Shown piece after piece: positions 10,323-42,617 of a stretch of 64,000 nt of DNA. The DNA is from Macrostomum hystrix (taxonomy: Eukaryota; Animalia; Platyhelminthes): contig CATNEN010000038.1 of NCBI GenBank assembly GCA_950097015.1, positions 33,108,001 to 33,172,000 of the forward strand, written 5' to 3'. The first letter of the stretch is position 1. Each line of letters starts with the position of its first letter. Below the pieces are notes generated by a model. The model was not told where the DNA came from. It did no database searches and was given only the letters and a program-made list of their open reading frames with translations. Position numbers and translations under genes: made by a program.

Positions 10323-10386
10323 TGTCAAGCCACCAGACATCGCTTATAATAGTGCAAGTCCGAGCTAGCCAATACAGTAGGCAGAA

Positions 10387-19327: not shown

Positions 19328-20744
19328 GTCCTATATAGATGACATCATCACCTATTCAAAAAGATTTGAAGAACATCTACAGCATTTAGCCGAAGTTTTC
19401 AAAAGAATCATTTCTGCCGGGCTTAAACTAAGGCCCAAGAAATGTTTTCTGTTTCAGCAAGAATTGCAGTATTTAGGTCATGTCATCGGAAAGTATGGAA
19501 TTAGAACTGACCCTGCTAAGATCGAAGCAATTGCATCATGGCCAACGCCGCGGGATGTGAAAGAACTGCGAAGCTTCTTAGGCCTGTGTAATTATTATTG
19601 TAGGTTCGTAAAAAATTATGCAGAGGCAGCGCATCCACTTTTCCAACTGACAAAGAAGAACATTCAGAACTTTAAAGAGAAATGGAACAGTAGTCATGAT
19701 GCGGCATTTCAGCTACTGAAGCAAAGAATGACTTCCACTGAAGTGCTCGCTTATCCGGAAATCACTGATAATGAAAATGTGAGGATGGTGCTAGACACTG
19801 ACGCCAGCGACGATAGAATCGGCGCTTGCCTGGGTCAGATCCAGGCGGATGGCGTAGAAAGGCCCATCGCTTATTTTAGCCGCGCGATGAAGGAGTCGGA
19901 GAAACGTTATCCGATTACCAAAAAAGAGTTGCTCGCCTTGGTCGATGGGATGAAGCATTTTCGCTTCTACCTGATTGGCAAGAAATTCTTAGCCAGAACG
20001 GACCACAAAGCAATTCTATGGCTTTTGAGACAGACGGAGGCACAGGGCATCCTAGGCAGATGGATAGAGAGGCTTAGTGAGTTCCAATTCGATATTGAGC
20101 ATCGAAGTGGAGCCAAGCACTCTAATGCTGATGGATTGTCCAGAAGGCCGTCAGAAGCAATCAAAACAGAAGAAGTAAATAGAATCTCAACCAGACAGTT
20201 GCCACGTGTCCAAGAGAAAGGATGCCAGACTGTAAGGAATGAGAAGAGAAAAAGAAAGACCAGGTCAAAACGAAAGTCTGCATTAACAAGCCAGCGCTTG
20301 TTTCAAGACAAACAAGGACCAAAACTGTTATTATATCGAATTAATGTCACTGCTGTTCCGAATTCAATGAGAATTATTGAAGAAATTGTGAAGAAAAATG
20401 GCGCTCCTAAAGCAAAGGCCAAGCCCGCAGAGCAAGGCATTAAGAGGAGGCAGCCAGAGCGCAAAAAGCCGCCAGACAAATCGCCGGACGTGTCAAATAG
20501 TGAGTTAAGCTCTGAAGAAAGAATTAGATGGTCTGCCCGTGGCAGGGAAAGTTTTGACCCGCACGAGGAAAATGAATCGCCAGAGAGCGATACCAGTGAA
20601 AGCTCGGAGGAAAATGAAGAAATCCCCGAGGACTTAGCAGCTCAATCTGCCTATAATCTCAGGCCACGCCTGACCCCACGCATCACGCAGACATGCGGTG
20701 ATCTCGTGTCAAAGCTTAAGCGTGCTCGCTTTCAAAAACAATAG
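19328..20744 (+). pseudogene. 5'-truncated pol (RT C-half, RNase H, tail) of first array unit
   Basis: Matches 25490-26906. Confidence 0.9.
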
Positions 20745-20993
20745 GCGAACGCCCACCACCCCAGGCCAGTAAGCCAATGGGTGATGATATTGCTCACATA
20801 TTCTCCGTGTATTATTGTGTAATCTGGCGATACCTATATCGCTAATATATCCTGCGTGTATCAAATTTGTATTGTTGTGTAATTCCTACGATAAGACTGC
20901 GTCACGAAAATATTTTAAATACTCTCCGCATATTATTTGGTATATTTTGTATACACCTCGATATCCTCATTGTAAACAAAATCTCGGCATCCT

Positions 20994-21030
20994 ATTGGTC
21001 AGGCACTCGCCCATTTTGTGACTATATAAA
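20994..21030 (+). promoter_or_regulatory. Putative internal promoter for ORF3 (inverted CCAAT 20994-20998, TATATAAA 21023-21030); repeated in every unit
   Basis: Motifs lie ~70-100 bp upstream of ATG 21098, which is in a good Kozak context (ATAATGG). Confidence 0.55.
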
Positions 21031-21097
21031 GGGCCACCTCGGAACAAGGGTTGCGCTAGCTAAGTGCTCTACTGAGACATACAGCCAACTCGCCATA

Positions 21098-21976
21098 ATG
21101 GCCGAAAATACCTCACTGAGTGATTTCTTACAAGAACTCATTGACTGTAATGAAGTTCCAAATGAATTCACAGGAGTGAGTGTGGAAGTCCTGCCAGCAG
21201 GCAGCGAAACTGAGCCGCCAATAGGCGAGTGCAATGTGGTTGACACCACGCCACGCAACGAATTGGCCGCTCCGCTGCGGCAGGCCACGCGGCCGAAACC
21301 ACCTGCCTATAGGGGCACGGCTGTCAAGCGGATGAGAACCTCAAGCCCGCGGCTGGAACCAGAGAATCGGCCACGAGGATCGCCGCAAAGCCGAGTCTCT
21401 AGACTGCCAATATCTACAGCCGAGATTCGTAGGCCTACAGTGCTATTGCAGCAGCCACCTGCGCATAGACCATCACAACCGACAAAGGTGGTGCAACAAC
21501 CAAAGCCGCAATCAACAGTGTACAGACCACCGTCACGCCAGCCGCTGGCTCCACGGCCTCAGAAGTTATCCACACCGGAGGATAATTGGCCACCGCGGTC
21601 TGCAGCAGCACATAGCCGGGCCGATCGGCCGGCTGCGTCAAGGATTCCACCACCCAGAATCGGGACCCGCGAAGAGCGCGTGGCCAAAGCGCAGCACAAG
21701 TTGACGCAATATCTGCTAAAAATTGTGTTCCTGCGCCATGACCAAGCACTGCCGCAGAGGGCGCACATATGGCCTTCAATTCGCTCCCTACGCAGTGCGA
21801 CGGACACGGCCGGGGCCATTACGGCCATGGAGACGGTCGCCGACAGGATACGGCGAGCTCTAAATGCAGGCGACAGGCAGGCCTTCCGGACCCTACTGAA
21901 CATCGAGGTACGCTGGATCCTCATCCAGCTAGGCTGGATCCACTACAAGGAACCACCATCGCAGTTTGAGTTCTAG
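21098..21976 (+). CDS. ORF3 of array element: 292-aa unknown protein (acidic N-terminus, P/R/Q-rich middle, helical-looking C-terminus)
   Basis: Long GC-rich ORF between pol and PPT; ATG at MAENTSLSD; no TM segment or env motifs seen. Confidence 0.7.
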   Translation: MAENTSLSDFLQELIDCNEVPNEFTGVSVEVLPAGSETEPPIGECNVVDTTPRNELAAPLRQATRPKPPAYRGTAVKRMRTSSPRLEPENRPRGSPQSRVSRLPISTAEIRRPTVLLQQPPAHRPSQPTKVVQQPKPQSTVYRPPSRQPLAPRPQKLSTPEDNWPPRSAAAHSRADRPAASRIPPPRIGTREERVAKAQHKLTQYLLKIVFLRHDQALPQRAHIWPSIRSLRSATDTAGAITAMETVADRIRRALNAGDRQAFRTLLNIEVRWILIQLGWIHYKEPPSQFEF

Positions 21977-22228
21977 AGGGATTGACTAAGTGTTTTATCA
22001 ATTTTTATGGACATTTATTTTTCTGCAAAGTGTTAATCCTTAGCTAACATCTTTCTGAAACTTTTGCTACGTATTTTGCTTTCTTTGTGTATGTTTTATG
22101 AAACTTTGTGTATTTTACTTATCTTCACTATACTTGGTATCTACGAATGTTAACTCTTTATTTTGCTAACATCTTTTGCTAATAATACTTCACTTAATTA
22201 TTCAGTATTATTATTAAGAGGAGGCAGT

Positions 22229-22822
22229 TGTTGTGGGTCAAATTTAAATCCGCGCTAGAAAAATATACTGTATGTATACTGGTAATATTAGCCTTATTCG
22301 ATTTGTTTAAAATGTAAAAATATACTGAGCATATATCCAGCGTACGTGGAAAAATTACTATAAATACAGCCCAGTTTCAATTAGATAGCTAACCGTTTCG
22401 TGACCATTATTAAGAAACAGTTCAATTCTCCTCGTGAGCAATCTTAACAAAGCCTTACTTATTTCTAAAGTAAGTGGAAGCCGTTGAAACCGATCCGGGG
22501 AAGCCCGAGTACAGACTGGCCAGAGAGCCTGAATTACCTGACAAAACTTGTCTGAATCACCTGAGAGCATTGTCTCCAGATCTAACTAGATTTAATATCT
22601 AGAATATAACTGGCAGGAGGCCAGAAATATCGTGACAAAGAGCCACGCTACCCAAACTATCAGTAGTTTGCATAAGTCCACCCGAGCAGGGGTGTGGTAT
22701 AATGTATATGTCATTCTAAAATGATTGACAGGCAATAAGTCAGAAGTTTAGGCCAATTACTTACAGTATGAGGAGAGTTTGAATTACTAGAAAAGTGCAA
22801 TTATAAAAGAAGCACTACTACA
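22229..22822 (+). repeat. LTR 1 of array (594 bp, TGTTGT...ACTACA)
   Basis: Preceded by PPT AAGAGGAGGCAG (22216-22227) and followed by PBS. Confidence 0.9.
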
Positions 22823-22825
22823 ACT

Positions 22826-22843
22826 TGGTGGCAGCGGTGGGAT
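22826..22843 (+). promoter_or_regulatory. PBS complementary to tRNA-Leu 3' end (copies 28988-29005, 35150-35167)
   Basis: TGGTGGCAGCGGTGGGAT is the reverse complement of ATCCCACCGCTGCCACCA, the tRNA-Leu(AAG/TAG)-type 3' end. Confidence 0.85.
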
Positions 22844-22899
22844 CGGAAAAGCGGCGGAATCTTACTTAGAAATAAGCTATTCATAGTCAAATAGTCAAA

Positions 22900-24018
22900 A
22901 TGAATGCCAACGATGCAATCGCCATGCTAGCAGAAGAACTAAGAAACCGATTAGAGCTGGGACCGACGAGACATGTCAAAATTCAAAAATTTACGCCAAA
23001 TCAGGAAATCAGAATTTGGCTGACAGCCTTTGACCAGCGCTGCGAAGCTGAAGGAATAGAGGAGGCACACAGGAAGCGCGAGCTCCTAGCCAACCTCGAT
23101 CTCTCAACTGCGTTTGCCGCAGTGCAGCGTATGAACTTACCGGACGATCTAGATTACGAAGAATTTAAAGAAAGACTAGTGGAACGTTTCGGAAGAACAG
23201 GAAGCTCCGCCGAATTTAGGGAAGAATTTAGAAGCCGTAGTCAAGGACGCAACGAACCAGTGGAAAATTTCTCTGACGCTCTTATCGAACTAGCTACCAG
23301 AGCATTTCCGAATATGACCGCAGAACAGAGAGAAGAAGAAATAATAGAACAATTTATTAAAGGAGTGAAAGTACCGGCTGAAACCAGAGAGAAGCTTATT
23401 TTTGCTGCACCAGCAACTCTACAAGATGCAAGGAGAATGCTGAGACGCATGGAAACAGCGTGGAACATGTCCCACAAAGGTGTTAGTATGAAGATGGCCA
23501 AGAGTGATGAAGCTGAACAAAAGAGACAGAGCAGGATTGAAGAAATATTGCTGAGGCAACAAGAAGAACTAGAACAACAAAAGAGAACCATGCAAGAACT
23601 CATGGTCAGTGTCCAGATGGCTACTCAGAACCTGCAGCAGCAGCAGAACTATCAGCAGCAGCAGAACTATCCGCAGCAGCAGCAGCAGAACTATCAGCAG
23701 CAGAATTATCAGCAGCGGCAGAACTATCAGCAGCAGCAGAATTATCAGCAACGGCAGAACTATCAGCAGCAGCAGAACTATCAGCCGAAACAGCAGCAGA
23801 ACCATCAGCAACAGCAGAACTATCAGCGGCAGAACTATCAGCAGAGACAGCAGCCAAATACTCAAGCGCAACAGCAGCAGTCGCAGAACTATCAGCAGCA
23901 GCAACAGCAGCAGGATCGCCCGCCGCGAATCTGCTTCAATTGTGGCAATAACGGACATGTGGCCAAATTCTGCCGAAGTTCTGGACCGGCTAATTCCAAT
24001 CAGCAGCAGGGAAACTGA
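22900..24018 (+). CDS. Gag (372 aa) with QQQQNY repeats and CCHC knuckle
   Basis: Retrotransposon capsid-like motifs (RSQGRNEPVENF, EQFIKG); CFNCGNNGHVAKFC. Confidence 0.9.
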   Translation: MNANDAIAMLAEELRNRLELGPTRHVKIQKFTPNQEIRIWLTAFDQRCEAEGIEEAHRKRELLANLDLSTAFAAVQRMNLPDDLDYEEFKERLVERFGRTGSSAEFREEFRSRSQGRNEPVENFSDALIELATRAFPNMTAEQREEEIIEQFIKGVKVPAETREKLIFAAPATLQDARRMLRRMETAWNMSHKGVSMKMAKSDEAEQKRQSRIEEILLRQQEELEQQKRTMQELMVSVQMATQNLQQQQNYQQQQNYPQQQQQNYQQQNYQQRQNYQQQQNYQQRQNYQQQQNYQPKQQQNHQQQQNYQRQNYQQRQQPNTQAQQQQSQNYQQQQQQQDRPPRICFNCGNNGHVAKFCRSSGPANSNQQQGN

Positions 24019-24083
24019 AGAGCGAGGATCGAGCAGAGAGGCCCCGATCCTCAGGAACAAATAAGTGCAAATTAAAAGCCTCT
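24009..24083 (+). promoter_or_regulatory. -1 programmed ribosomal frameshift signal (GGGAAAC plus stem-loop or pseudoknot); repeated at +6162 and +12324
   Basis: Slippery heptamer 24009-24015 immediately before the gag stop; pol is in the -1 frame; 8-bp stem 24024-24031/24045-24052. Confidence 0.85.
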
Positions 24084-26906
24084 GAACCAGCAGTAGCAAC
24101 GTCCGCACCCAAGATCGAGTCAACTAATATAGAGATTAAAGGTCGGGAAGCAATATTACAAGGAGAAATTAGAGGAAAGTCGCTAAACTTTTTACTAGAC
24201 ACCGGTGCTGGACATAACTTTTTAAGTCGAAGCTCATGGAAGAACACGTTCCGCAAAGAAGAAATTTACAATTCAAATAGACGAGTAACAACTTTCGACG
24301 GTTCAGAAGTGGAGATTATTGGTGAAGTAACAACAGTATTAAACTTTGGCGATATCAGTATCAGTACACTATTCCTGCTGTGTGACCACGAGAGTGACGA
24401 TATCTTAGGAATGGAGTTTTTCTTGAAATATTGCAATAATATCAATTTTAGTCAAGGAATGGTGGTTTTAAAGAATGGAAGATGTCTGCCTATTCAATTT
24501 ACTAAACTGCCTGTGCGAATATGCAGAGTATACAGCCAGGAGAAAATAACCGTGCCGGCTAGCAGCGCTCTGAAGATCCCAGTGCGATTAGCAACTAACT
24601 ATGAAAGAAATTATGGAACGCCCATGACTGTAGAAGCAATCAACGATCAGATTCAATTAAAAGAAGGATCAGTAGGAGTAACTCCTACGTTAGTTACTAT
24701 GATCGATGGAACAGGAGTAGTGGAAGTTGTGAATAAACATAACTACGAAATCAATATACCGAAATCATCTTTAATTGGTTTAGCCAAGCCGCTGAAGTCA
24801 AAGAATTTGAATTATTATATTGAATGCGATAAAGAAACAGAACGAATCGGAAGCGTCAAAGAAGAATCAGATGAATGGATAAAGGAAATCCATTTAGGCA
24901 AAGAACTGTCCGACATCCAACAAGAACAGGTCAGACAATTAATCAAAGACAATCGGAAGGCTTTTTCGCAGAATAGTCGAGAAATGGGTCTAACCCATTT
25001 AATAACTCATGAAATCGTGTTACAGGACACTACGCCAGTCAGGATACCGACACGACGAATTCCGCCACACCTTCAAAAGCAGGTCGATGAGCAGTTAGAT
25101 GACATGTTGGCAAAGAACTTAATCCGACCTTGCTACAGTACCTATTCAACACCGTTGGTAATTGTGCCAAAGAAAGACGGGACGCTCCGGATAGTGAGTG
25201 ATTTTCGTGTACTGAATTCACGAGTACACTATTATCCCTATCCGTTGCCTAACATCCAAGAAACGTTTTCTCATCTGACGGGCAGTCAGTTCTTCAGCAG
25301 CCTTGACCTGAATTCGGGTTATTGGCAAGTGCCGATCAAGGAAGAACACAAACATATGACTGCGTTCTCCACGCTGACCCGAGGTCAATTTGAATACCAA
25401 GTGATGGCGCAAGGGCTGTCCAATGCCCCTGGCACCTTTCAAAGATTGATGAATACAGTGCTAGAAGGGATCCAGCATCGGTATGCCATGTCCTATATAG
25501 ATGACATCATCACCTATTCAAAAAGATTTGAAGAACATCTACAGCATTTAGCCGAAGTTTTCAAAAGAATCATTTCTGCCGGGCTTAAACTAAGGCCCAA
25601 GAAATGTTTTCTGTTTCAGCAAGAATTGCAGTATTTAGGTCATGTCATCGGAAAGTATGGAATTAGAACTGACCCTGCTAAGATCGAAGCAATTGCATCA
25701 TGGCCAACGCCGCGGGATGTGAAAGAACTGCGAAGCTTCTTAGGCCTGTGTAATTATTATTGTAGGTTCGTAAAAAATTATGCAGAGGCAGCGCATCCAC
25801 TTTTCCAACTGACAAAGAAGAACATTCAGAACTTTAAAGAGAAATGGAACAGTAGTCATGATGCGGCATTTCAGCTACTGAAGCAAAGAATGACTTCCAC
25901 TGAAGTGCTCGCTTATCCGGAAATCACTGATAATGAAAATGTGAGGATGGTGCTAGACACTGACGCCAGCGACGATAGAATCGGCGCTTGCCTGGGTCAG
26001 ATCCAGGCGGATGGCGTAGAAAGGCCCATCGCTTATTTTAGCCGCGCGATGAAGGAGTCGGAGAAACGTTATCCGATTACCAAAAAAGAGTTGCTCGCCT
26101 TGGTCGATGGGATGAAGCATTTTCGCTTCTACCTGATTGGCAAGAAATTCTTAGCCAGAACGGACCACAAAGCAATTCTATGGCTTTTGAGACAGACGGA
26201 GGCACAGGGCATCCTAGGCAGATGGATAGAGAGGCTTAGTGAGTTCCAATTCGATATTGAGCATCGAAGTGGAGCCAAGCACTCTAATGCTGATGGATTG
26301 TCCAGAAGGCCGTCAGAAGCAATCAAAACAGAAGAAGTAAATAGAATCTCAACCAGACAGTTGCCACGTGTCCAAGAGAAAGGATGCCAGACTGTAAGGA
26401 ATGAGAAGAGAAAAAGAAAGACCAGGTCAAAACGAAAGTCTGCATTAACAAGCCAGCGCTTGTTTCAAGACAAACAAGGACCAAAACTGTTATTATATCG
26501 AATTAATGTCACTGCTGTTCCGAATTCAATGAGAATTATTGAAGAAATTGTGAAGAAAAATGGCGCTCCTAAAGCAAAGGCCAAGCCCGCAGAGCAAGGC
26601 ATTAAGAGGAGGCAGCCAGAGCGCAAAAAGCCGCCAGACAAATCGCCGGACGTGTCAAATAGTGAGTTAAGCTCTGAAGAAAGAATTAGATGGTCTGCCC
26701 GTGGCAGGGAAAGTTTTGACCCGCACGAGGAAAATGAATCGCCAGAGAGCGATACCAGTGAAAGCTCGGAGGAAAATGAAGAAATCCCCGAGGACTTAGC
26801 AGCTCAATCTGCCTATAATCTCAGGCCACGCCTGACCCCACGCATCACGCAGACATGCGGTGATCTCGTGTCAAAGCTTAAGCGTGCTCGCTTTCAAAAA
26901 CAATAG
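24009..26906 (+). CDS. Pol (PR-RT-RNase H, no integrase), translated by frameshift from gag
   Basis: Frame open from 24009. FLLDTGA, LDLNSGYWQV, YIDD, DTDAS..ELLAL..TDHK..NADGLSR, then a ~200-aa basic/acidic tail with YNLRPR; no HHCC or DDE motifs. Confidence 0.92.
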   Translation, partial: GKLKSEDRAERPRSSGTNKCKLKASEPAVATSAPKIESTNIEIKGREAILQGEIRGKSLNFLLDTGAGHNFLSRSSWKNTFRKEEIYNSNRRVTTFDGSEVEIIGEVTTVLNFGDISISTLFLLCDHESDDILGMEFFLKYCNNINFSQGMVVLKNGRCLPIQFTKLPVRICRVYSQEKITVPASSALKIPVRLATNYERNYGTPMTVEAINDQIQLKEGSVGVTPTLVTMIDGTGVVEVVNKHNYEINIPKSSLIGLAKPLKSKNLNYYIECDKETERIGSVKEESDEWIKEIHLGKELSDIQQEQVRQLIKDNRKAFSQNSREMGLTHLITHEIVLQDTTPVRIPTRRIPPHLQKQVDEQLDDMLAKNLIRPCYSTYSTPLVIVPKKDGTLRIVSDFRVLNSRVHYYPYPLPNIQETFSHLTGSQFFSSLDLNSGYWQVPIKEEHKHMTAFSTLTRGQFEYQVMAQGLSNAPGTFQRLMNTVLEGIQHRYAMSYIDDIITYSKRFEEHLQHLAEVFKRIISAGLKLRPKKCFLFQQELQYLGHVIGKYGIRTDPAKIEAIASWPTPRDVKELRSFLGLCNYYCRFVKNYAEAAHPLFQLTKKNIQNFKEKWNSSHDAAFQLLKQRMTSTEVLAYPEITDNENVRMVLDTDASDDRIGACLGQIQADGVERPIAYFSRAMKESEKRYPITKKELLALVDGMKHFRFYLIGKKFLARTDHKAILWLLRQTEAQGILGRWIERLSEFQFDIEHRSGAKHSNADGLSRRPSEAIKTEEVNRISTRQLPRVQEKGCQTVRNEKRKRKTRSKRKSALTSQRLFQDKQGPKLLLYRINVTAVPNSMRIIEEIVKKNGAPKAKAKPAEQGIKRRQPERKKPPDKSPDVSNSELSSEERIRWSARGRESFDPHEENESPESDTSESSEENEEIPEDLAAQSAYNLRPRLTPRITQTCGDLVSKLKRARFQKQ

Positions 26907-27259
26907 GCGAACGCCCACCACCCCAGGCCAGTAAGCCAATGGGTGATGATATTGCTCACATATTCTCCGTGTATTATTGTGTAATCTGGCGATACCTATA
27001 TCGCTAATATATCCTGCGTGTATCAAATTTGTATTGTTGTGTAATTCCTACGATAAGACTGCGTCACGAAAATATTTTAAATACTCTCCGCATATTATTT
27101 GGTATATTTTGTATACACCTCGATATCCTCATTGTAAACAAAATCTCGGCATCCTATTGGTCAGGCACTCGCCCATTTTGTGACTATATAAAGGGCCACC
27201 TCGGAACAAGGGTTGCGCTAGCTAAGTGCTCTACTGAGACATACAGCCAACTCGCCATA

Positions 27260-28138
27260 ATGGCCGAAAATACCTCACTGAGTGATTTCTTACAAGAACT
27301 CATTGACTGTAATGAAGTTCCAAATGAATTCACAGGAGTGAGTGTGGAAGTCCTGCCAGCAGGCAGCGAAACTGAGCCGCCAATAGGCGAGTGCAATGTG
27401 GTTGACACCACGCCACGCAACGAATTGGCCGCTCCGCTGCGGCAGGCCACGCGGCCGAAACCACCTGCCTATAGGGGCACGGCTGTCAAGCGGATGAGAA
27501 CCTCAAGCCCGCGGCTGGAACCAGAGAATCGGCCACGAGGATCGCCGCAAAGCCGAGTCTCTAGACTGCCAATATCTACAGCCGAGATTCGTAGGCCTAC
27601 AGTGCTATTGCAGCAGCCACCTGCGCATAGACCATCACAACCGACAAAGGTGGTGCAACAACCAAAGCCGCAATCAACAGTGTACAGACCACCGTCACGC
27701 CAGCCGCTGGCTCCACGGCCTCAGAAGTTATCCACACCGGAGGATAATTGGCCACCGCGGTCTGCAGCAGCACATAGCCGGGCCGATCGGCCGGCTGCGT
27801 CAAGGATTCCACCACCCAGAATCGGGACCCGCGAAGAGCGCGTGGCCAAAGCGCAGCACAAGTTGACGCAATATCTGCTAAAAATTGTGTTCCTGCGCCA
27901 TGACCAAGCACTGCCGCAGAGGGCGCACATATGGCCTTCAATTCGCTCCCTACGCAGTGCGACGGACACGGCCGGGGCCATTACGGCCATGGAGACGGTC
28001 GCCGACAGGATACGGCGAGCTCTAAATGCAGGCGACAGGCAGGCCTTCCGGACCCTACTGAACATCGAGGTACGCTGGATCCTCATCCAGCTAGGCTGGA
28101 TCCACTACAAGGAACCACCATCGCAGTTTGAGTTCTAG
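27260..28138 (+). CDS. ORF3, unit 2
   Basis: Same translation as 21098-21976. Confidence 0.7.
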   Translation: MAENTSLSDFLQELIDCNEVPNEFTGVSVEVLPAGSETEPPIGECNVVDTTPRNELAAPLRQATRPKPPAYRGTAVKRMRTSSPRLEPENRPRGSPQSRVSRLPISTAEIRRPTVLLQQPPAHRPSQPTKVVQQPKPQSTVYRPPSRQPLAPRPQKLSTPEDNWPPRSAAAHSRADRPAASRIPPPRIGTREERVAKAQHKLTQYLLKIVFLRHDQALPQRAHIWPSIRSLRSATDTAGAITAMETVADRIRRALNAGDRQAFRTLLNIEVRWILIQLGWIHYKEPPSQFEF

Positions 28139-28390
28139 AGGGATTGACTAAGTGTTTTATCAATTTTTATGGACATTTATTTTTCTGCAAAGTGTTAATC
28201 CTTAGCTAACATCTTTCTGAAACTTTTGCTACGTATTTTGCTTTCTTTGTGTATGTTTTATGAAACTTTGTGTATTTTACTTATCTTCACTATACTTGGT
28301 ATCTACGAATGTTAACTCTTTATTTTGCTAACATCTTTTGCTAATAATACTTCACTTAATTATTCAGTATTATTATTAAGAGGAGGCAGT

Positions 28391-28984
28391 TGTTGTGGGT
28401 CAAATTTAAATCCGCGCTAGAAAAATATACTGTATGTATACTGGTAATATTAGCCTTATTCGATTTGTTTAAAATGTAAAAATATACTGAGCATATATCC
28501 AGCGTACGTGGAAAAATTACTATAAATACAGCCCAGTTTCAATTAGATAGCTAACCGTTTCGTGACCATTATTAAGAAACAGTTCAATTCTCCTCGTGAG
28601 CAATCTTAACAAAGCCTTACTTATTTCTAAAGTAAGTGGAAGCCGTTGAAACCGATCCGGGGAAGCCCGAGTACAGACTGGCCAGAGAGCCTGAATTACC
28701 TGACAAAACTTGTCTGAATCACCTGAGAGCATTGTCTCCAGATCTAACTAGATTTAATATCTAGAATATAACTGGCAGGAGGCCAGAAATATCGTGACAA
28801 AGAGCCACGCTACCCAAACTATCAGTAGTTTGCATAAGTCCACCCGAGCAGGGGTGTGGTATAATGTATATGTCATTCTAAAATGATTGACAGGCAATAA
28901 GTCAGAAGTTTAGGCCAATTACTTACAGTATGAGGAGAGTTTGAATTACTAGAAAAGTGCAATTATAAAAGAAGCACTACTACA
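28391..28984 (+). repeat. LTR 2 of array
   Basis: Copy at +6162, with PPT before and PBS after. Confidence 0.9.
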
Positions 28985-29061
28985 ACTTGGTGGCAGCGGT
29001 GGGATCGGAAAAGCGGCGGAATCTTACTTAGAAATAAGCTATTCATAGTCAAATAGTCAAA

Positions 29062-30180
29062 ATGAATGCCAACGATGCAATCGCCATGCTAGCAGAAGAA
29101 CTAAGAAACCGATTAGAGCTGGGACCGACGAGACATGTCAAAATTCAAAAATTTACGCCAAATCAGGAAATCAGAATTTGGCTGACAGCCTTTGACCAGC
29201 GCTGCGAAGCTGAAGGAATAGAGGAGGCACACAGGAAGCGCGAGCTCCTAGCCAACCTCGATCTCTCAACTGCGTTTGCCGCAGTGCAGCGTATGAACTT
29301 ACCGGACGATCTAGATTACGAAGAATTTAAAGAAAGACTAGTGGAACGTTTCGGAAGAACAGGAAGCTCCGCCGAATTTAGGGAAGAATTTAGAAGCCGT
29401 AGTCAAGGACGCAACGAACCAGTGGAAAATTTCTCTGACGCTCTTATCGAACTAGCTACCAGAGCATTTCCGAATATGACCGCAGAACAGAGAGAAGAAG
29501 AAATAATAGAACAATTTATTAAAGGAGTGAAAGTACCGGCTGAAACCAGAGAGAAGCTTATTTTTGCTGCACCAGCAACTCTACAAGATGCAAGGAGAAT
29601 GCTGAGACGCATGGAAACAGCGTGGAACATGTCCCACAAAGGTGTTAGTATGAAGATGGCCAAGAGTGATGAAGCTGAACAAAAGAGACAGAGCAGGATT
29701 GAAGAAATATTGCTGAGGCAACAAGAAGAACTAGAACAACAAAAGAGAACCATGCAAGAACTCATGGTCAGTGTCCAGATGGCTACTCAGAACCTGCAGC
29801 AGCAGCAGAACTATCAGCAGCAGCAGAACTATCCGCAGCAGCAGCAGCAGAACTATCAGCAGCAGAATTATCAGCAGCGGCAGAACTATCAGCAGCAGCA
29901 GAATTATCAGCAACGGCAGAACTATCAGCAGCAGCAGAACTATCAGCCGAAACAGCAGCAGAACCATCAGCAACAGCAGAACTATCAGCGGCAGAACTAT
30001 CAGCAGAGACAGCAGCCAAATACTCAAGCGCAACAGCAGCAGTCGCAGAACTATCAGCAGCAGCAACAGCAGCAGGATCGCCCGCCGCGAATCTGCTTCA
30101 ATTGTGGCAATAACGGACATGTGGCCAAATTCTGCCGAAGTTCTGGACCGGCTAATTCCAATCAGCAGCAGGGAAACTGA
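29062..30180 (+). CDS. Gag, unit 3
   Basis: Same translation as 22900-24018. Confidence 0.9.
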   Translation: MNANDAIAMLAEELRNRLELGPTRHVKIQKFTPNQEIRIWLTAFDQRCEAEGIEEAHRKRELLANLDLSTAFAAVQRMNLPDDLDYEEFKERLVERFGRTGSSAEFREEFRSRSQGRNEPVENFSDALIELATRAFPNMTAEQREEEIIEQFIKGVKVPAETREKLIFAAPATLQDARRMLRRMETAWNMSHKGVSMKMAKSDEAEQKRQSRIEEILLRQQEELEQQKRTMQELMVSVQMATQNLQQQQNYQQQQNYPQQQQQNYQQQNYQQRQNYQQQQNYQQRQNYQQQQNYQPKQQQNHQQQQNYQRQNYQQRQQPNTQAQQQQSQNYQQQQQQQDRPPRICFNCGNNGHVAKFCRSSGPANSNQQQGN

Positions 30181-33068: not shown

Positions 33069-33421
33069 GCGAACGCCCACCACCCCAGGCCAGTAAGCCA
33101 ATGGGTGATGATATTGCTCACATATTCTCCGTGTATTATTGTGTAATCTGGCGATACCTATATCGCTAATATATCCTGCGTGTATCAAATTTGTATTGTT
33201 GTGTAATTCCTACGATAAGACTGCGTCACGAAAATATTTTAAATACTCTCCGCATATTATTTGGTATATTTTGTATACACCTCGATATCCTCATTGTAAA
33301 CAAAATCTCGGCATCCTATTGGTCAGGCACTCGCCCATTTTGTGACTATATAAAGGGCCACCTCGGAACAAGGGTTGCGCTAGCTAAGTGCTCTACTGAG
33401 ACATACAGCCAACTCGCCATA

Positions 33422-34300
33422 ATGGCCGAAAATACCTCACTGAGTGATTTCTTACAAGAACTCATTGACTGTAATGAAGTTCCAAATGAATTCACAGGAG
33501 TGAGTGTGGAAGTCCTGCCAGCAGGCAGCGAAACTGAGCCGCCAATAGGCGAGTGCAATGTGGTTGACACCACGCCACGCAACGAATTGGCCGCTCCGCT
33601 GCGGCAGGCCACGCGGCCGAAACCACCTGCCTATAGGGGCACGGCTGTCAAGCGGATGAGAACCTCAAGCCCGCGGCTGGAACCAGAGAATCGGCCACGA
33701 GGATCGCCGCAAAGCCGAGTCTCTAGACTGCCAATATCTACAGCCGAGATTCGTAGGCCTACAGTGCTATTGCAGCAGCCACCTGCGCATAGACCATCAC
33801 AACCGACAAAGGTGGTGCAACAACCAAAGCCGCAATCAACAGTGTACAGACCACCGTCACGCCAGCCGCTGGCTCCACGGCCTCAGAAGTTATCCACACC
33901 GGAGGATAATTGGCCACCGCGGTCTGCAGCAGCACATAGCCGGGCCGATCGGCCGGCTGCGTCAAGGATTCCACCACCCAGAATCGGGACCCGCGAAGAG
34001 CGCGTGGCCAAAGCGCAGCACAAGTTGACGCAATATCTGCTAAAAATTGTGTTCCTGCGCCATGACCAAGCACTGCCGCAGAGGGCGCACATATGGCCTT
34101 CAATTCGCTCCCTACGCAGTGCGACGGACACGGCCGGGGCCATTACGGCCATGGAGACGGTCGCCGACAGGATACGGCGAGCTCTAAATGCAGGCGACAG
34201 GCAGGCCTTCCGGACCCTACTGAACATCGAGGTACGCTGGATCCTCATCCAGCTAGGCTGGATCCACTACAAGGAACCACCATCGCAGTTTGAGTTCTAG
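33422..34300 (+). CDS. ORF3, unit 3
   Basis: Same translation as 21098-21976. Confidence 0.7.
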   Translation: MAENTSLSDFLQELIDCNEVPNEFTGVSVEVLPAGSETEPPIGECNVVDTTPRNELAAPLRQATRPKPPAYRGTAVKRMRTSSPRLEPENRPRGSPQSRVSRLPISTAEIRRPTVLLQQPPAHRPSQPTKVVQQPKPQSTVYRPPSRQPLAPRPQKLSTPEDNWPPRSAAAHSRADRPAASRIPPPRIGTREERVAKAQHKLTQYLLKIVFLRHDQALPQRAHIWPSIRSLRSATDTAGAITAMETVADRIRRALNAGDRQAFRTLLNIEVRWILIQLGWIHYKEPPSQFEF

Positions 34301-34552
34301 AGGGATTGACTAAGTGTTTTATCAATTTTTATGGACATTTATTTTTCTGCAAAGTGTTAATCCTTAGCTAACATCTTTCTGAAACTTTTGCTACGTATTT
34401 TGCTTTCTTTGTGTATGTTTTATGAAACTTTGTGTATTTTACTTATCTTCACTATACTTGGTATCTACGAATGTTAACTCTTTATTTTGCTAACATCTTT
34501 TGCTAATAATACTTCACTTAATTATTCAGTATTATTATTAAGAGGAGGCAGT

Positions 34553-35146
34553 TGTTGTGGGTCAAATTTAAATCCGCGCTAGAAAAATATACTGTATGTA
34601 TACTGGTAATATTAGCCTTATTCGATTTGTTTAAAATGTAAAAATATACTGAGCATATATCCAGCGTACGTGGAAAAATTACTATAAATACAGCCCAGTT
34701 TCAATTAGATAGCTAACCGTTTCGTGACCATTATTAAGAAACAGTTCAATTCTCCTCGTGAGCAATCTTAACAAAGCCTTACTTATTTCTAAAGTAAGTG
34801 GAAGCCGTTGAAACCGATCCGGGGAAGCCCGAGTACAGACTGGCCAGAGAGCCTGAATTACCTGACAAAACTTGTCTGAATCACCTGAGAGCATTGTCTC
34901 CAGATCTAACTAGATTTAATATCTAGAATATAACTGGCAGGAGGCCAGAAATATCGTGACAAAGAGCCACGCTACCCAAACTATCAGTAGTTTGCATAAG
35001 TCCACCCGAGCAGGGGTGTGGTATAATGTATATGTCATTCTAAAATGATTGACAGGCAATAAGTCAGAAGTTTAGGCCAATTACTTACAGTATGAGGAGA
35101 GTTTGAATTACTAGAAAAGTGCAATTATAAAAGAAGCACTACTACA
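34553..35146 (+). repeat. LTR 3 of array
   Basis: Copy at +12324. Confidence 0.9.
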
Positions 35147-35223
35147 ACTTGGTGGCAGCGGTGGGATCGGAAAAGCGGCGGAATCTTACTTAGAAATAAG
35201 CTATTCATAGTCAAATAGTCAAA

Positions 35224-36342
35224 ATGAATGCCAACGATGCAATCGCCATGCTAGCAGAAGAACTAAGAAACCGATTAGAGCTGGGACCGACGAGACATGT
35301 CAAAATTCAAAAATTTACGCCAAATCAGGAAATCAGAATTTGGCTGACAGCCTTTGACCAGCGCTGCGAAGCTGAAGGAATAGAGGAGGCACACAGGAAG
35401 CGCGAGCTCCTAGCCAACCTCGATCTCTCAACTGCGTTTGCCGCAGTGCAGCGTATGAACTTACCGGACGATCTAGATTACGAAGAATTTAAAGAAAGAC
35501 TAGTGGAACGTTTCGGAAGAACAGGAAGCTCCGCCGAATTTAGGGAAGAATTTAGAAGCCGTAGTCAAGGACGCAACGAACCAGTGGAAAATTTCTCTGA
35601 CGCTCTTATCGAACTAGCTACCAGAGCATTTCCGAATATGACCGCAGAACAGAGAGAAGAAGAAATAATAGAACAATTTATTAAAGGAGTGAAAGTACCG
35701 GCTGAAACCAGAGAGAAGCTTATTTTTGCTGCACCAGCAACTCTACAAGATGCAAGGAGAATGCTGAGACGCATGGAAACAGCGTGGAACATGTCCCACA
35801 AAGGTGTTAGTATGAAGATGGCCAAGAGTGATGAAGCTGAACAAAAGAGACAGAGCAGGATTGAAGAAATATTGCTGAGGCAACAAGAAGAACTAGAACA
35901 ACAAAAGAGAACCATGCAAGAACTCATGGTCAGTGTCCAGATGGCTACTCAGAACCTGCAGCAGCAGCAGAACTATCAGCAGCAGCAGAACTATCCGCAG
36001 CAGCAGCAGCAGAACTATCAGCAGCAGAATTATCAGCAGCGGCAGAACTATCAGCAGCAGCAGAATTATCAGCAACGGCAGAACTATCAGCAGCAGCAGA
36101 ACTATCAGCCGAAACAGCAGCAGAACCATCAGCAACAGCAGAACTATCAGCGGCAGAACTATCAGCAGAGACAGCAGCCAAATACTCAAGCGCAACAGCA
36201 GCAGTCGCAGAACTATCAGCAGCAGCAACAGCAGCAGGATCGCCCGCCGCGAATCTGCTTCAATTGTGGCAATAACGGACATGTGGCCAAATTCTGCCGA
36301 AGTTCTGGACCGGCTAATTCCAATCAGCAGCAGGGAAACTGA
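35224..36342 (+). CDS. Gag, unit 4
   Basis: Same translation as 22900-24018. Confidence 0.9.
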   Translation: MNANDAIAMLAEELRNRLELGPTRHVKIQKFTPNQEIRIWLTAFDQRCEAEGIEEAHRKRELLANLDLSTAFAAVQRMNLPDDLDYEEFKERLVERFGRTGSSAEFREEFRSRSQGRNEPVENFSDALIELATRAFPNMTAEQREEEIIEQFIKGVKVPAETREKLIFAAPATLQDARRMLRRMETAWNMSHKGVSMKMAKSDEAEQKRQSRIEEILLRQQEELEQQKRTMQELMVSVQMATQNLQQQQNYQQQQNYPQQQQQNYQQQNYQQRQNYQQQQNYQQRQNYQQQQNYQPKQQQNHQQQQNYQRQNYQQRQQPNTQAQQQQSQNYQQQQQQQDRPPRICFNCGNNGHVAKFCRSSGPANSNQQQGN

Positions 36343-39230
36343 AGAGCGAGGATCGAGCAGAGAGGCCCCGATCCTCAGGAACAAATAAGTGCAAATTAAA
36401 AGCCTCTGAACCAGCAGTAGCAACGTCCGCACCCAAGATCGAGTCAACTAATATAGAGATTAAAGGTCGGGAAGCAATATTACAAGGAGAAATTAGAGGA
36501 AAGTCGCTAAACTTTTTACTAGACACCGGTGCTGGACATAACTTTTTAAGTCGAAGCTCATGGAAGAACACGTTCCGCAAAGAAGAAATTTACAATTCAA
36601 ATAGACGAGTAACAACTTTCGACGGTTCAGAAGTGGAGATTATTGGTGAAGTAACAACAGTATTAAACTTTGGCGATATCAGTATCAGTACACTATTCCT
36701 GCTGTGTGACCACGAGAGTGACGATATCTTAGGAATGGAGTTTTTCTTGAAATATTGCAATAATATCAATTTTAGTCAAGGAATGGTGGTTTTAAAGAAT
36801 GGAAGATGTCTGCCTATTCAATTTACTAAACTGCCTGTGCGAATATGCAGAGTATACAGCCAGGAGAAAATAACCGTGCCGGCTAGCAGCGCTCTGAAGA
36901 TCCCAGTGCGATTAGCAACTAACTATGAAAGAAATTATGGAACGCCCATGACTGTAGAAGCAATCAACGATCAGATTCAATTAAAAGAAGGATCAGTAGG
37001 AGTAACTCCTACGTTAGTTACTATGATCGATGGAACAGGAGTAGTGGAAGTTGTGAATAAACATAACTACGAAATCAATATACCGAAATCATCTTTAATT
37101 GGTTTAGCCAAGCCGCTGAAGTCAAAGAATTTGAATTATTATATTGAATGCGATAAAGAAACAGAACGAATCGGAAGCGTCAAAGAAGAATCAGATGAAT
37201 GGATAAAGGAAATCCATTTAGGCAAAGAACTGTCCGACATCCAACAAGAACAGGTCAGACAATTAATCAAAGACAATCGGAAGGCTTTTTCGCAGAATAG
37301 TCGAGAAATGGGTCTAACCCATTTAATAACTCATGAAATCGTGTTACAGGACACTACGCCAGTCAGGATACCGACACGACGAATTCCGCCACACCTTCAA
37401 AAGCAGGTCGATGAGCAGTTAGATGACATGTTGGCAAAGAACTTAATCCGACCTTGCTACAGTACCTATTCAACACCGTTGGTAATTGTGCCAAAGAAAG
37501 ACGGGACGCTCCGGATAGTGAGTGATTTTCGTGTACTGAATTCACGAGTACACTATTATCCCTATCCGTTGCCTAACATCCAAGAAACGTTTTCTCATCT
37601 GACGGGCAGTCAGTTCTTCAGCAGCCTTGACCTGAATTCGGGTTATTGGCAAGTGCCGATCAAGGAAGAACACAAACATATGACTGCGTTCTCCACGCTG
37701 ACCCGAGGTCAATTTGAATACCAAGTGATGGCGCAAGGGCTGTCCAATGCCCCTGGCACCTTTCAAAGATTGATGAATACAGTGCTAGAAGGGATCCAGC
37801 ATCGGTATGCCATGTCCTATATAGATGACATCATCACCTATTCAAAAAGATTTGAAGAACATCTACAGCATTTAGCCGAAGTTTTCAAAAGAATCATTTC
37901 TGCCGGGCTTAAACTAAGGCCCAAGAAATGTTTTCTGTTTCAGCAAGAATTGCAGTATTTAGGTCATGTCATCGGAAAGTATGGAATTAGAACTGACCCT
38001 GCTAAGATCGAAGCAATTGCATCATGGCCAACGCCGCGGGATGTGAAAGAACTGCGAAGCTTCTTAGGCCTGTGTAATTATTATTGTAGGTTCGTAAAAA
38101 ATTATGCAGAGGCAGCGCATCCACTTTTCCAACTGACAAAGAAGAACATTCAGAACTTTAAAGAGAAATGGAACAGTAGTCATGATGCGGCATTTCAGCT
38201 ACTGAAGCAAAGAATGACTTCCACTGAAGTGCTCGCTTATCCGGAAATCACTGATAATGAAAATGTGAGGATGGTGCTAGACACTGACGCCAGCGACGAT
38301 AGAATCGGCGCTTGCCTGGGTCAGATCCAGGCGGATGGCGTAGAAAGGCCCATCGCTTATTTTAGCCGCGCGATGAAGGAGTCGGAGAAACGTTATCCGA
38401 TTACCAAAAAAGAGTTGCTCGCCTTGGTCGATGGGATGAAGCATTTTCGCTTCTACCTGATTGGCAAGAAATTCTTAGCCAGAACGGACCACAAAGCAAT
38501 TCTATGGCTTTTGAGACAGACGGAGGCACAGGGCATCCTAGGCAGATGGATAGAGAGGCTTAGTGAGTTCCAATTCGATATTGAGCATCGAAGTGGAGCC
38601 AAGCACTCTAATGCTGATGGATTGTCCAGAAGGCCGTCAGAAGCAATCAAAACAGAAGAAGTAAATAGAATCTCAACCAGACAGTTGCCACGTGTCCAAG
38701 AGAAAGGATGCCAGACTGTAAGGAATGAGAAGAGAAAAAGAAAGACCAGGTCAAAACGAAAGTCTGCATTAACAAGCCAGCGCTTGTTTCAAGACAAACA
38801 AGGACCAAAACTGTTATTATATCGAATTAATGTCACTGCTGTTCCGAATTCAATGAGAATTATTGAAGAAATTGTGAAGAAAAATGGCGCTCCTAAAGCA
38901 AAGGCCAAGCCCGCAGAGCAAGGCATTAAGAGGAGGCAGCCAGAGCGCAAAAAGCCGCCAGACAAATCGCCGGACGTGTCAAATAGTGAGTTAAGCTCTG
39001 AAGAAAGAATTAGATGGTCTGCCCGTGGCAGGGAAAGTTTTGACCCGCACGAGGAAAATGAATCGCCAGAGAGCGATACCAGTGAAAGCTCGGAGGAAAA
39101 TGAAGAAATCCCCGAGGACTTAGCAGCTCAATCTGCCTATAATCTCAGGCCACGCCTGACCCCACGCATCACGCAGACATGCGGTGATCTCGTGTCAAAG
39201 CTTAAGCGTGCTCGCTTTCAAAAACAATAG
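36333..39230 (+). CDS. Pol without integrase, unit 4
   Basis: Same translation as 24009-26906. Confidence 0.92.
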   Translation, partial: GKLKSEDRAERPRSSGTNKCKLKASEPAVATSAPKIESTNIEIKGREAILQGEIRGKSLNFLLDTGAGHNFLSRSSWKNTFRKEEIYNSNRRVTTFDGSEVEIIGEVTTVLNFGDISISTLFLLCDHESDDILGMEFFLKYCNNINFSQGMVVLKNGRCLPIQFTKLPVRICRVYSQEKITVPASSALKIPVRLATNYERNYGTPMTVEAINDQIQLKEGSVGVTPTLVTMIDGTGVVEVVNKHNYEINIPKSSLIGLAKPLKSKNLNYYIECDKETERIGSVKEESDEWIKEIHLGKELSDIQQEQVRQLIKDNRKAFSQNSREMGLTHLITHEIVLQDTTPVRIPTRRIPPHLQKQVDEQLDDMLAKNLIRPCYSTYSTPLVIVPKKDGTLRIVSDFRVLNSRVHYYPYPLPNIQETFSHLTGSQFFSSLDLNSGYWQVPIKEEHKHMTAFSTLTRGQFEYQVMAQGLSNAPGTFQRLMNTVLEGIQHRYAMSYIDDIITYSKRFEEHLQHLAEVFKRIISAGLKLRPKKCFLFQQELQYLGHVIGKYGIRTDPAKIEAIASWPTPRDVKELRSFLGLCNYYCRFVKNYAEAAHPLFQLTKKNIQNFKEKWNSSHDAAFQLLKQRMTSTEVLAYPEITDNENVRMVLDTDASDDRIGACLGQIQADGVERPIAYFSRAMKESEKRYPITKKELLALVDGMKHFRFYLIGKKFLARTDHKAILWLLRQTEAQGILGRWIERLSEFQFDIEHRSGAKHSNADGLSRRPSEAIKTEEVNRISTRQLPRVQEKGCQTVRNEKRKRKTRSKRKSALTSQRLFQDKQGPKLLLYRINVTAVPNSMRIIEEIVKKNGAPKAKAKPAEQGIKRRQPERKKPPDKSPDVSNSELSSEERIRWSARGRESFDPHEENESPESDTSESSEENEEIPEDLAAQSAYNLRPRLTPRITQTCGDLVSKLKRARFQKQ

Positions 39231-39583
39231 GCGAACGCCCACCACCCCAGGCCAGTAAGCCAATGGGTGATGATATTGCTCACATATTCTCCGTGTATTA
39301 TTGTGTAATCTGGCGATACCTATATCGCTAATATATCCTGCGTGTATCAAATTTGTATTGTTGTGTAATTCCTACGATAAGACTGCGTCACGAAAATATT
39401 TTAAATACTCTCCGCATATTATTTGGTATATTTTGTATACACCTCGATATCCTCATTGTAAACAAAATCTCGGCATCCTATTGGTCAGGCACTCGCCCAT
39501 TTTGTGACTATATAAAGGGCCACCTCGGAACAAGGGTTGCGCTAGCTAAGTGCTCTACTGAGACATACAGCCAACTCGCCATA

Positions 39584-40462
39584 ATGGCCGAAAATACCTC
39601 ACTGAGTGATTTCTTACAAGAACTCATTGACTGTAATGAAGTTCCAAATGAATTCACAGGAGTGAGTGTGGAAGTCCTGCCAGCAGGCAGCGAAACTGAG
39701 CCGCCAATAGGCGAGTGCAATGTGGTTGACACCACGCCACGCAACGAATTGGCCGCTCCGCTGCGGCAGGCCACGCGGCCGAAACCACCTGCCTATAGGG
39801 GCACGGCTGTCAAGCGGATGAGAACCTCAAGCCCGCGGCTGGAACCAGAGAATCGGCCACGAGGATCGCCGCAAAGCCGAGTCTCTAGACTGCCAATATC
39901 TACAGCCGAGATTCGTAGGCCTACAGTGCTATTGCAGCAGCCACCTGCGCATAGACCATCACAACCGACAAAGGTGGTGCAACAACCAAAGCCGCAATCA
40001 ACAGTGTACAGACCACCGTCACGCCAGCCGCTGGCTCCACGGCCTCAGAAGTTATCCACACCGGAGGATAATTGGCCACCGCGGTCTGCAGCAGCACATA
40101 GCCGGGCCGATCGGCCGGCTGCGTCAAGGATTCCACCACCCAGAATCGGGACCCGCGAAGAGCGCGTGGCCAAAGCGCAGCACAAGTTGACGCAATATCT
40201 GCTAAAAATTGTGTTCCTGCGCCATGACCAAGCACTGCCGCAGAGGGCGCACATATGGCCTTCAATTCGCTCCCTACGCAGTGCGACGGACACGGCCGGG
40301 GCCATTACGGCCATGGAGACGGTCGCCGACAGGATACGGCGAGCTCTAAATGCAGGCGACAGGCAGGCCTTCCGGACCCTACTGAACATCGAGGTACGCT
40401 GGATCCTCATCCAGCTAGGCTGGATCCACTACAAGGAACCACCATCGCAGTTTGAGTTCTAG
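39584..40462 (+). CDS. ORF3, unit 4
   Basis: Same translation as 21098-21976. Confidence 0.7.
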   Translation: MAENTSLSDFLQELIDCNEVPNEFTGVSVEVLPAGSETEPPIGECNVVDTTPRNELAAPLRQATRPKPPAYRGTAVKRMRTSSPRLEPENRPRGSPQSRVSRLPISTAEIRRPTVLLQQPPAHRPSQPTKVVQQPKPQSTVYRPPSRQPLAPRPQKLSTPEDNWPPRSAAAHSRADRPAASRIPPPRIGTREERVAKAQHKLTQYLLKIVFLRHDQALPQRAHIWPSIRSLRSATDTAGAITAMETVADRIRRALNAGDRQAFRTLLNIEVRWILIQLGWIHYKEPPSQFEF

Positions 40463-40714
40463 AGGGATTGACTAAGTGTTTTATCAATTTTTATGGACAT
40501 TTATTTTTCTGCAAAGTGTTAATCCTTAGCTAACATCTTTCTGAAACTTTTGCTACGTATTTTGCTTTCTTTGTGTATGTTTTATGAAACTTTGTGTATT
40601 TTACTTATCTTCACTATACTTGGTATCTACGAATGTTAACTCTTTATTTTGCTAACATCTTTTGCTAATAATACTTCACTTAATTATTCAGTATTATTAT
40701 TAAGAGGAGGCAGT

Positions 40715-41308
40715 TGTTGTGGGTCAAATTTAAATCCGCGCTAGAAAAATATACTGTATGTATACTGGTAATATTAGCCTTATTCGATTTGTTTAAAATG
40801 TAAAAATATACTGAGCATATATCCAGCGTACGTGGAAAAATTACTATAAATACAGCCCAGTTTCAATTAGATAGCTAACCGTTTCGTGACCATTATTAAG
40901 AAACAGTTCAATTCTCCTCGTGAGCAATCTTAACAAAGCCTTACTTATTTCTAAAGTAAGTGGAAGCCGTTGAAACCGATCCGGGGAAGCCCGAGTACAG
41001 ACTGGCCAGAGAGCCTGAATTACCTGACAAAACTTGTCTGAATCACCTGAGAGCATTGTCTCCAGATCTAACTAGATTTAATATCTAGAATATAACTGGC
41101 AGGAGGCCAGAAATATCGTGACAAAGAGCCACGCTACCCAAACTATCAGTAGTTTGCATAAGTCCACCCGAGCAGGGGTGTGGTATAATGTATATGTCAT
41201 TCTAAAATGATTGACAGGCAATAAGTCAGAAGTTTAGGCCAATTACTTACAGTATGAGGAGAGTTTGAATTACTAGAAAAGTGCAATTATAAAAGAAGCA
41301 CTACTACA
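40715..41308 (+). repeat. LTR 4 (terminal) of array
   Basis: Ends ...CTACTACA and is followed by unrelated AT-rich flank instead of a PBS. Confidence 0.9.
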
Positions 41309-42617
41309 AATGTAGCCACGCTGCATCATTTATTAGCAATGATAATAAAGTAATATTACAAGCTGAAGATAATTTAAAGATGTGTAGCTGTCCATGTTCA
41401 TTTTTATATTCTCTTATAGCAATAAATTAAACTTGACTTTAAATTTCCATTCAATTCATAGACTAAAAGTATCACAATATAAGAAAAAAATATATTTTTG
41501 CAGCACACACAAAAAATGTAAGGTTTACTGCGTTACTGTGTACAAAAGTTTCATTATCTATATATCAGCTTTCAATTTGTTAAACAAATTCTCAATTATA
41601 AAGAGTCCTTGGTGCCATTATATGATTTATTAAACAAAAAAACAACTATTTTGCTACAACCGGTGTCACTAAAAAAATACAGTTACGTTATTCAAAGAAA
41701 GAATGGCAAAGGATCACGGGCCTATGACATATGGCATTTATAAATAGCAGAAAGGTCTTTATTTTCTTTGGATGTCTTGACGTGTGTGTTATTAAAGTCT
41801 GTTTTGTGCTCATAAAGCAGCACTCAATATATACATTGCAATAATGCAGTAATTAGAAATTCTTGGCTTACATTATATGTGGTGTGACAATTTTTTTGTC
41901 AAAGACTCTCCAAGAGGTTGTGAAGCTGTAAATAAAAACTATTGCGCATTTTAAAAAATTTCTCTTGTTTAATGCACTTTCAGATTGGTAATTTAGAAGA
42001 GCAATTTTCATTTAGCAATTTCGTATAAATGACACCGATGACTAATAACAGTAGAACCAAGTAATTTAATTAATGTTTTATGGTAATCTGGTTTCTTCTC
42101 ACATATTCCCGTATACATACTTTATCATTAGACTCGTTATCATTACAAATTTCCTGCCTAAAGTCCAAAATCGTGGCTCGGACACGCGTCGCTTATTAAT
42201 TTTTCTGTTGAATTTTCGCAAAATGTGTCACTAATATCGAGCAGATTAGGAAAAATTAAATGCTTTGACATTAAAAACATCAATTTAGATTTTTAACAGT
42301 AAAAATATACCCATTTGACATTTACTTGCCGTTACATCATAAGTACTGTTACATCTGCAACTTTGTTATAATCTTCGGAAATGCAATTTGAGATTTACCC
42401 GTCTGAATCATGGCTAAACCAGAGTTTGAATCATAGTCAACCAGAGTATGAATCATGGCAAAGTTTTTCTTTTGTCATTGAATTGAATTCTTGACATTTT
42501 GAGTTTGTTATCTCATGACGTCATAATGATATATATTTGTATGAGAAATATTTTGCTTAATATTCATTTAATTGTTGTTCTTCCTAATTTTCTACAAAAG
42601 AAGCTAATATAAAAATT

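Follow-up and report, generated by a model that had tools for sequence, protein, structure and literature searches.

A tandem Gypsy array without an integrase gene in Macrostomum hystrix, probably inserted with a borrowed integrase

The window analysed here is a stretch of 64,000 nucleotides from the flatworm Macrostomum hystrix (GenBank assembly GCA_950097015.1, contig CATNEN010000038.1, positions 33,108,001 to 33,172,000 of the forward strand). At 19328 to 41308 it carries a head-to-tail array of a Ty3/Gypsy retrotransposon, with single long terminal repeats (LTRs) between neighbouring units and a pol gene that encodes protease, reverse transcriptase (RT) and RNase H but no integrase. The features, in window coordinates, are as follows.

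19328..41308, + strand: the whole shared-LTR array, 3.57 units of 6162 bp, taking the place of 493 bp of host DNA
19328..22822, + strand: first unit, truncated at its 5' end; starts mid-RT at YIDD, followed by RNase H, tail, open reading frame (ORF) 3, polypurine tract (PPT) and LTR
22216..22228, + strand: PPT, then AGT (3 bases), then the TG of the LTR; recurs at +6162, +12324 and +18486
22229..22822, + strand: LTR 1, common to neighbouring units; 594 bp, TG...CA
22826..22843, + strand: primer-binding site (PBS) for tRNA-Leu(AAG), starting 3 bases (ACT) past the CA of the LTR
22900..24018, + strand: gag, with a Gln-rich repeat and a CCHC zinc knuckle
23994..26906, + strand: pol ORF, 970 codons from stop to stop; protease, RT and RNase H, without integrase
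24009..24052, + strand: predicted -1 frameshift site GGGAAAC and downstream hairpin
26310..26906, + strand: post-RNase H tail, a linker remnant joined in frame to the last strand of the integrase and its tail
27260..28138, + strand: ORF3, 292 amino acids, with a TATA-like box about 70 bp upstream; Pro-rich N-terminal part and predicted four-helix C-terminal domain
28391..28984, + strand: LTR 2, common to neighbouring units; identical copy
34553..35146, + strand: LTR 3, common to neighbouring units; identical copy
40715..41308, + strand: terminal LTR 4, with host DNA joined directly after its CA
18435..19327, - strand: ORF in the host flank with Cys-rich motifs and no Pfam match, its upstream part severed by the insertion

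The array measures 21,981 bp and comprises 3 complete units and a partial one, with 4 LTRs. Self-BLAST of the window gave a match of 15,820 bp at 100% identity with an offset of 6162, and none at 6161 or 6163; the four LTRs are mutually identical. The first-pass annotation had described a head-to-tail repeat at exactly 6162 bp with one LTR between units, and both points hold in the assembly, where internal regions alternate with single LTRs. Its description of whole LTR-to-LTR units does not hold at the left edge, which has no LTR and lies at the RT YIDD motif, the first unit lacking its initial 3261 bp. Tandem order and copy number are known from the assembly alone, the contigs discussed below being short-read contigs. 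The LTR has no canonical heat-shock element.

The unit has the LTR ends (TG...CA), PBS, PPT and gag-protease-RT-RNase H order of Ty3/Gypsy elements, and its RT-RNase H region groups with Gypsy elements. All 18 nucleotides of the PBS match a tRNA-Leu(AAG) 3'-end probe given in PMC6103689. Pfam searches of the unit matched protease, RVT_1 and RNase H, with the motifs of all three enzymes in place, and the zf-CCHC match in gag had an E-value of 7.5e-4, slightly below the curated cut-off. The hairpin behind GGGAAAC is modest (z -1.97; equalled by 5 of 200 shuffles). With gag, protease, RT, RNase H and the extra ORF all kept, the family likely makes its own cDNA, and the earlier statement that every signal for cDNA synthesis is intact was borne out as far as the PBS, the PPT, the GGGAAAC site and the enzyme motifs go.

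The missing integrase is the result of a deletion. The HHCC and DD35E motifs that follow RNase H in autonomous Ty3/Gypsy elements are absent, and the unit has no Pfam match to rve or H2C2. A hidden Markov model (HMM) of 50 related integrases, taken from 50 of 120 listed relatives, gave a best E-value of 11 over the 847 six-frame fragments inside the array, while the same model matched 4 fragments of 3 other elements in the window at E-values from 5e-18 to 2e-8. The reading of pol as integrase-less is thus confirmed, and the scan returned no divergent integrase, which the first-pass annotation had named as evidence that would tell against it. Gmr1-like elements carry their integrase between protease and RT; this arrangement, or an integrase in another frame, was excluded since no HMM match was found anywhere in the unit. 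The protease-RT spacer aligns with the corresponding region of an integrase-bearing relative from Macrostomum lignano (P0001). After the RNase H end motif, 204 amino acids follow in the window versus 682 in a second such relative, P0123, and the window pol is about 478 amino acids shorter. What was kept, fused in frame, is part of the linker together with the last 140 amino acids; the integrase between them is deleted. Over 138 amino acids, the tail that was kept shares 36% identity with that of P0123 (P0002 versus P0123, 27%). The idea that a low tail identity (27%, versus 35% for the more distant P0002) reflects decay was weakened, as much of the segment is deleted.

A query of RT, RNase H and tail matched best the integrase-bearing M. 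lignano pol P0001 (86% over the matched part), and the next two best matches, at 62% and 57%, are also from this species, so that the matches by themselves point to a Macrostomum as the likely host. P0001 is 76% identical to the unit over protease, RT and RNase H and 89% identical in the RT-RNase H core. In an RT-RNase H tree of 20 sequences (the window unit and 19 picked from the matches), the phylogeny that the first-pass annotation had called for, the unit and P0001 are sisters with a support of 0.997. Since the unit is sister to an integrase-bearing element and lies inside integrase-bearing elements, the loss of integrase is derived. Of the 8 residues that P0123 and P0002 have in common in the last integrase strand, 3 are altered in the window, which is modest evidence for drift after the loss. 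A search with RNase H plus tail among proteins below 533 amino acids gave 19 matches and no second integrase-less relative with this tail; the best of them spans RNase H only, and query cover was 27 to 41% for all. Four other M. lignano proteins of a 13-member cluster on a separate branch (P0133, P0135, P0137 and P0142) stop 118 to 147 amino acids past RNase H and have no integrase domain; this could be an independent loss of integrase, with frameshifted copies as another option.

The unit is present in eight public runs from two studies, and we examined the contigs of four (X1, X2, X4 and X5). One contig of X4, identified at both flanks by its length (3897 bp) and depth (4.53), carries the empty site: its positions 468-2323 correspond to window positions 17474-19328 and its positions 2817-3896 to 41309-42400, with 493 bp standing where the window has the array. 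The site is therefore polymorphic, with the array in the window and an empty allele in X4. The flanks differ from X4 at 3 of 1855 and 13 of 1080 bases. Contigs from X1 leave the window sequence at both junctions, with 121 and 158 other letters, the former count holding if minus-strand record coordinates run in the direction of the contig itself.

The two ends of the array are unlike each other. Instead of an LTR at both ends and one target duplication, we find a left end in the middle of RT and a loss of 493 bp of host DNA. At the right end, host DNA follows the CA of the LTR. Each internal LTR is preceded by AGT and followed by ACT; terminal LTR 4 lacks the ACT behind it, and of these 3 extra bases only the A is common to the host sequence, i.e., 1 bp of homology. 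No PBS likeness was found in the host flank at this junction. At the left junction, 1 bp is in common with the host flank. In the X4 empty allele, no LTR end adjoins the junction. For LTR elements, a clean CA end without homology is the product of an integrase. The severed ORF in the left flank (18435-19327) may, judging from its resemblance to such genes, be a DNA-transposon gene.

Because the four LTRs are identical and the flanks have changed little from X4, the insertion is recent and younger than the loss of integrase. The integrase for the insertion was therefore likely supplied in trans.

A near-identical integrase-bearing parent could have been the supplier, and the first-pass annotation had named such copies as the observation that would reduce the array to a simple deletion derivative. 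Contigs that span the deletion point without integrase are present in three of the four runs: in X2 (19328-20636), in X4 (19328-20457) and in X1, where an 896-bp contig (38048-38943) is unbroken over the deletion point with 0 differences and a depth of 745.8. For X5, no contig over the deletion point is among those listed. Depth over this point is flat at 7.4 in X4 and returns to 745.8 in X1, with no fork in either. Such a parent would be expected to break contigs, and none shows in X1 and X4, the two runs examined closely; an absence from two runs of one study is not proof.

A less similar relative does exist in X1, X2 and X4. A contig of this sister family in RT (38072-38105) has a depth of 317 in X1 and 16.8 in X4, and all 10 listed changes are synonymous. 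A loose end in X2 translates by hand to FMTAFSTLTR, in which the F is shared with P0001 while the window has H. LTR relatives in the runs are about 83-87% alike; 38 differences were counted over 218 bp. As helpers, the two remaining Gypsy elements of the window were considered and rejected, being too distant (29% and 33% identity in RT-RNase H). In the X4 copy of the unit itself, three gag-pol pieces show 4 differences from the window over 3341 bases, a count that excludes one gag contig of greater divergence (38 of 451), but tail and ORF3 show 25 over 1724 bases. This suggests either that subfamilies have recombined or that pol is under stronger constraint.

In X1, the part present three times in the array has a contig depth of 556, the part present four times 697-815 and the flanks 193-230. 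The 5'/3' ratio is 0.745 versus 0.75 expected from the array alone. This step fits an X1 that carries the array beside an empty allele, but contig depth is not copy number and other truncated copies could also give 0.745; we do not count it as proof.

Gene content, integrase deletion, empty allele and the junctions on both sides are observed, and from them we think it reasonably probable that this is a Gypsy family without integrase that borrows one and multiplies by LTR or cDNA recombination. Essential enzyme gone, LTR termini and PBS kept, it has the make-up of a non-autonomous element. In this view, a helper integrase bound the end of the LTR, removed the 3 extra bases past the CA and joined that end to the new site. 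The tandem likely grew by recombination of LTRs or cDNAs, be it among cDNAs or circles ahead of the insertion or from one LTR to another once the element was in place. The left end could stem from host repair in a one-ended insertion, or from a later deletion in which 3261 bp of the unit and 493 bp of host DNA were lost together. One-ended insertion and normal insertion followed by deletion lead to the same picture.

The first-pass annotation had proposed a lineage that gave up integrase and spreads by recombination into its own copies. Its premise stands, in that integrase is gone and the genes for making cDNA are intact, whereas spread into own copies only does not agree with a site that is empty and without an LTR in X4, nor with a right end at the CA. 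In its general form this account has cDNA or one-LTR circles entering by homologous recombination or single-strand annealing, mostly at own copies, with no integrase needed. It would account for identical units with single LTRs in common, and the X1 depth is explicable by this array alone; according to PMC11042837, Tf1 without integrase builds tandems with shared LTRs where Tf2 copies already exist, and for insertions at unique sites a truncation of the distal end has been proposed. Integrase-free Tf1 junctions, as described there, show homology to the PBS or PPT; the right junction of the array shows none, and the X4 allele offered no own copy to land in. Neither of these Tf1-type marks is present, the match between cDNA end and host flank being a single base and the junction lying exactly at the CA. 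We consider integrase-free propagation very unlikely, and one-ended joining by a borrowed integrase appears to fit the right junction better than recombination into own copies. The part of the earlier proposal concerning cDNA or circle recombination may still describe how the units grew in number, yet such growth is common for ordinary LTR elements, as reported in PMC5932611 and PMC11899658. The term "coding macrosatellite" is overstated for 3.6 copies at a polymorphic site.

An ordinary and recent deletion derivative, mobilised by an integrase-bearing parent that is present now or was until recently and then duplicated by unequal LTR exchange, is an unlikely explanation, if somewhat less so. 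According to PMC11899658, neither deletion derivatives nor shared-LTR tandems are unusual, both being common; here, the nearest relative has an integrase, the tail still resembles that of P0123, and minor alleles can drop out of short-read contigs. However, the unbroken X1 contig and the flat depth in X4 speak against a parent at the deletion point, the X4 copy has diverged in tail and ORF3 while still lacking integrase, and the alterations in the last integrase strand sit poorly with a very young deletion. Least probable, in our view, is a single real insertion whose number of tandem units was inflated or homogenised by the assembly. Zero differences over 15,820 bp would be in keeping with this. 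Against it, both junctions lie 493 bp apart in one host locus, the right one exactly at the LTR end, and the unit in X1 has about 2.7 to 3.6 times the flank depth, higher in the four-copy part, although depth does not equal copy number.

Several points weigh against integration by a borrowed integrase. Neither array junction is in any short-read contig listed, so the array allele rests on the assembly of the window. A target duplication was not seen for any copy, and only one junction of the family was readable. Neither the helper integrase nor the termini of the sister family were seen, as this family is known from short RT and LTR pieces only. Rare variants can vanish from contigs, and a low-frequency integrase-bearing parent could be missed; moreover, X1 and X4 come from one study. 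Support for the loss being old is modest. Finally, Li et al. speculated that integrase-independent Tf1 insertions may likewise be truncated at the far end (PMC11042837).

ORF3 was likely inherited from the clade as an accessory gene that has a promoter of its own. Only 4 relatives were found at E<=0.001 among 1.84 billion representatives, three of them from M. lignano and one unnamed; they share 38-43% identity and 23 invariant columns in the C-terminal domain, which is modelled as four helices (pLDDT 85.7). ORF3 has no Pfam match, no word-index homologs and no ESM Atlas match, no related loci were found in metagenome or viral contigs, and no viral fold matched at E<=0.001. The best match in the PDB, a cullin helical repeat at Z 7.3, is under the level meaningful for helical bundles. 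A Pro-rich N-terminal part and a small helical domain are unlike env, for which no dedicated test was made, and nothing suggests that ORF3 replaces the integrase.

The window holds further mobile elements. An intact Bel/Pao element at 10017-16947, 2.4 kb from the array, has identical 286-bp LTRs, an ORF of 1836 amino acids with integrase and a 5-bp target duplication, and it is skipped exactly by an X1 contig, making it a second very recent polymorphic insertion. A broken Gypsy element at 48358-52043 has a single LTR from about 48568, ends within the integrase core at about 51835 and lies between the copies of a 210-bp direct repeat (98.6%). It resembles a further one-ended insertion, though one in which a long piece of host DNA was duplicated rather than deleted. 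The third Gypsy element (60744-63998, minus strand) has an integrase split by one stop codon and 33% identity to the array in RT-RNase H. Positions 1-2685 and 5501-8172 form a 98% direct duplication that contains ORFs with replication protein A-type OB folds. To the right of the array, 42401-42462 holds a short repeat in a few copies, with an X1 contig depth of more than one million, apparently a major satellite of the genome.

A wider reading is tentative, and we would call it possible at most: a long-lived Gypsy lineage that has outsourced integration, with selection maintaining the RT machinery and ORF3 and with cDNA multimers or rolled circles being put in by the borrowed integrase as finished tandem arrays; integrase was perhaps lost more than once in Macrostomum, given the separate M. 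lignano branch described above. If a family lacking integrase alone yields very recent insertions, integration by itself can be outsourced, between families about 80-85% alike in DNA. The array would also be a natural animal case for weighing integrase-led against recombination-led formation of LTR tandems. Pipelines that demand integrase for completeness would downgrade such families; the survey of M. lignano in PMC12801592 counted copies as complete only with integrase, by first approximation. Exact-phrase searches of open-access papers, which are weak evidence, found no family without integrase alone, and the supplements of PMC12801592 may list some.

Shared-LTR tandems and non-autonomous elements are already known, and the loss of integrase alone is an unusual variant. 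Shared-LTR tandems are described as frequent in Drosophila and plants and are mostly ascribed to LTR recombination (PMC5932611, PMC11899658). Like the array, those of Drosophila, rice, Tf1/Tf2 and Ty5 have alternating internal regions and single LTRs and are polymorphic between individuals (PMC5932611, PMC11899658, PMC11042837). Two rice tandem loci among them are bounded by LTRs with target duplications, whereas the window array has one truncated end, a host loss and no integrase gene. One-ended retroviral integrations of avian sarcoma-leukosis virus (ASLV) and HIV-1, with one normal end, one truncated end and a flanking host deletion (PMC5041404), resemble the array; these events arose in culture from mutated ends, drugs or weakened integrase, while here a natural multimer and a borrowed integrase would be involved. 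A sugar-beet survey also lists non-autonomous families, in which pol domains have partly decayed (PMC13570524). In the wheat families RLG_Sabrina, RLG_WHAM and RLG_Quinta and in TR-GAG elements, LTR ends, PBS and some intact ORFs are kept, as in the window unit, and for the semi-autonomous wheat families mobilisation by the enzymes of a partner has been proposed (PMC9744471, PMC11302176). The wheat families, as described there, and TR-GAG elements lack both RT and integrase, whereas the window unit lacks integrase only, with RT-RNase H and the extra ORF intact. Closest of all is the M. lignano Ty3/Gypsy family PAA58172.1 / PAA49551.1 (P0001, P0123), whose RNase H linker and C-terminal tail are homologous to those of the window and which, unlike the window pol, carries the H2C2, rve and p58_C integrase domains.

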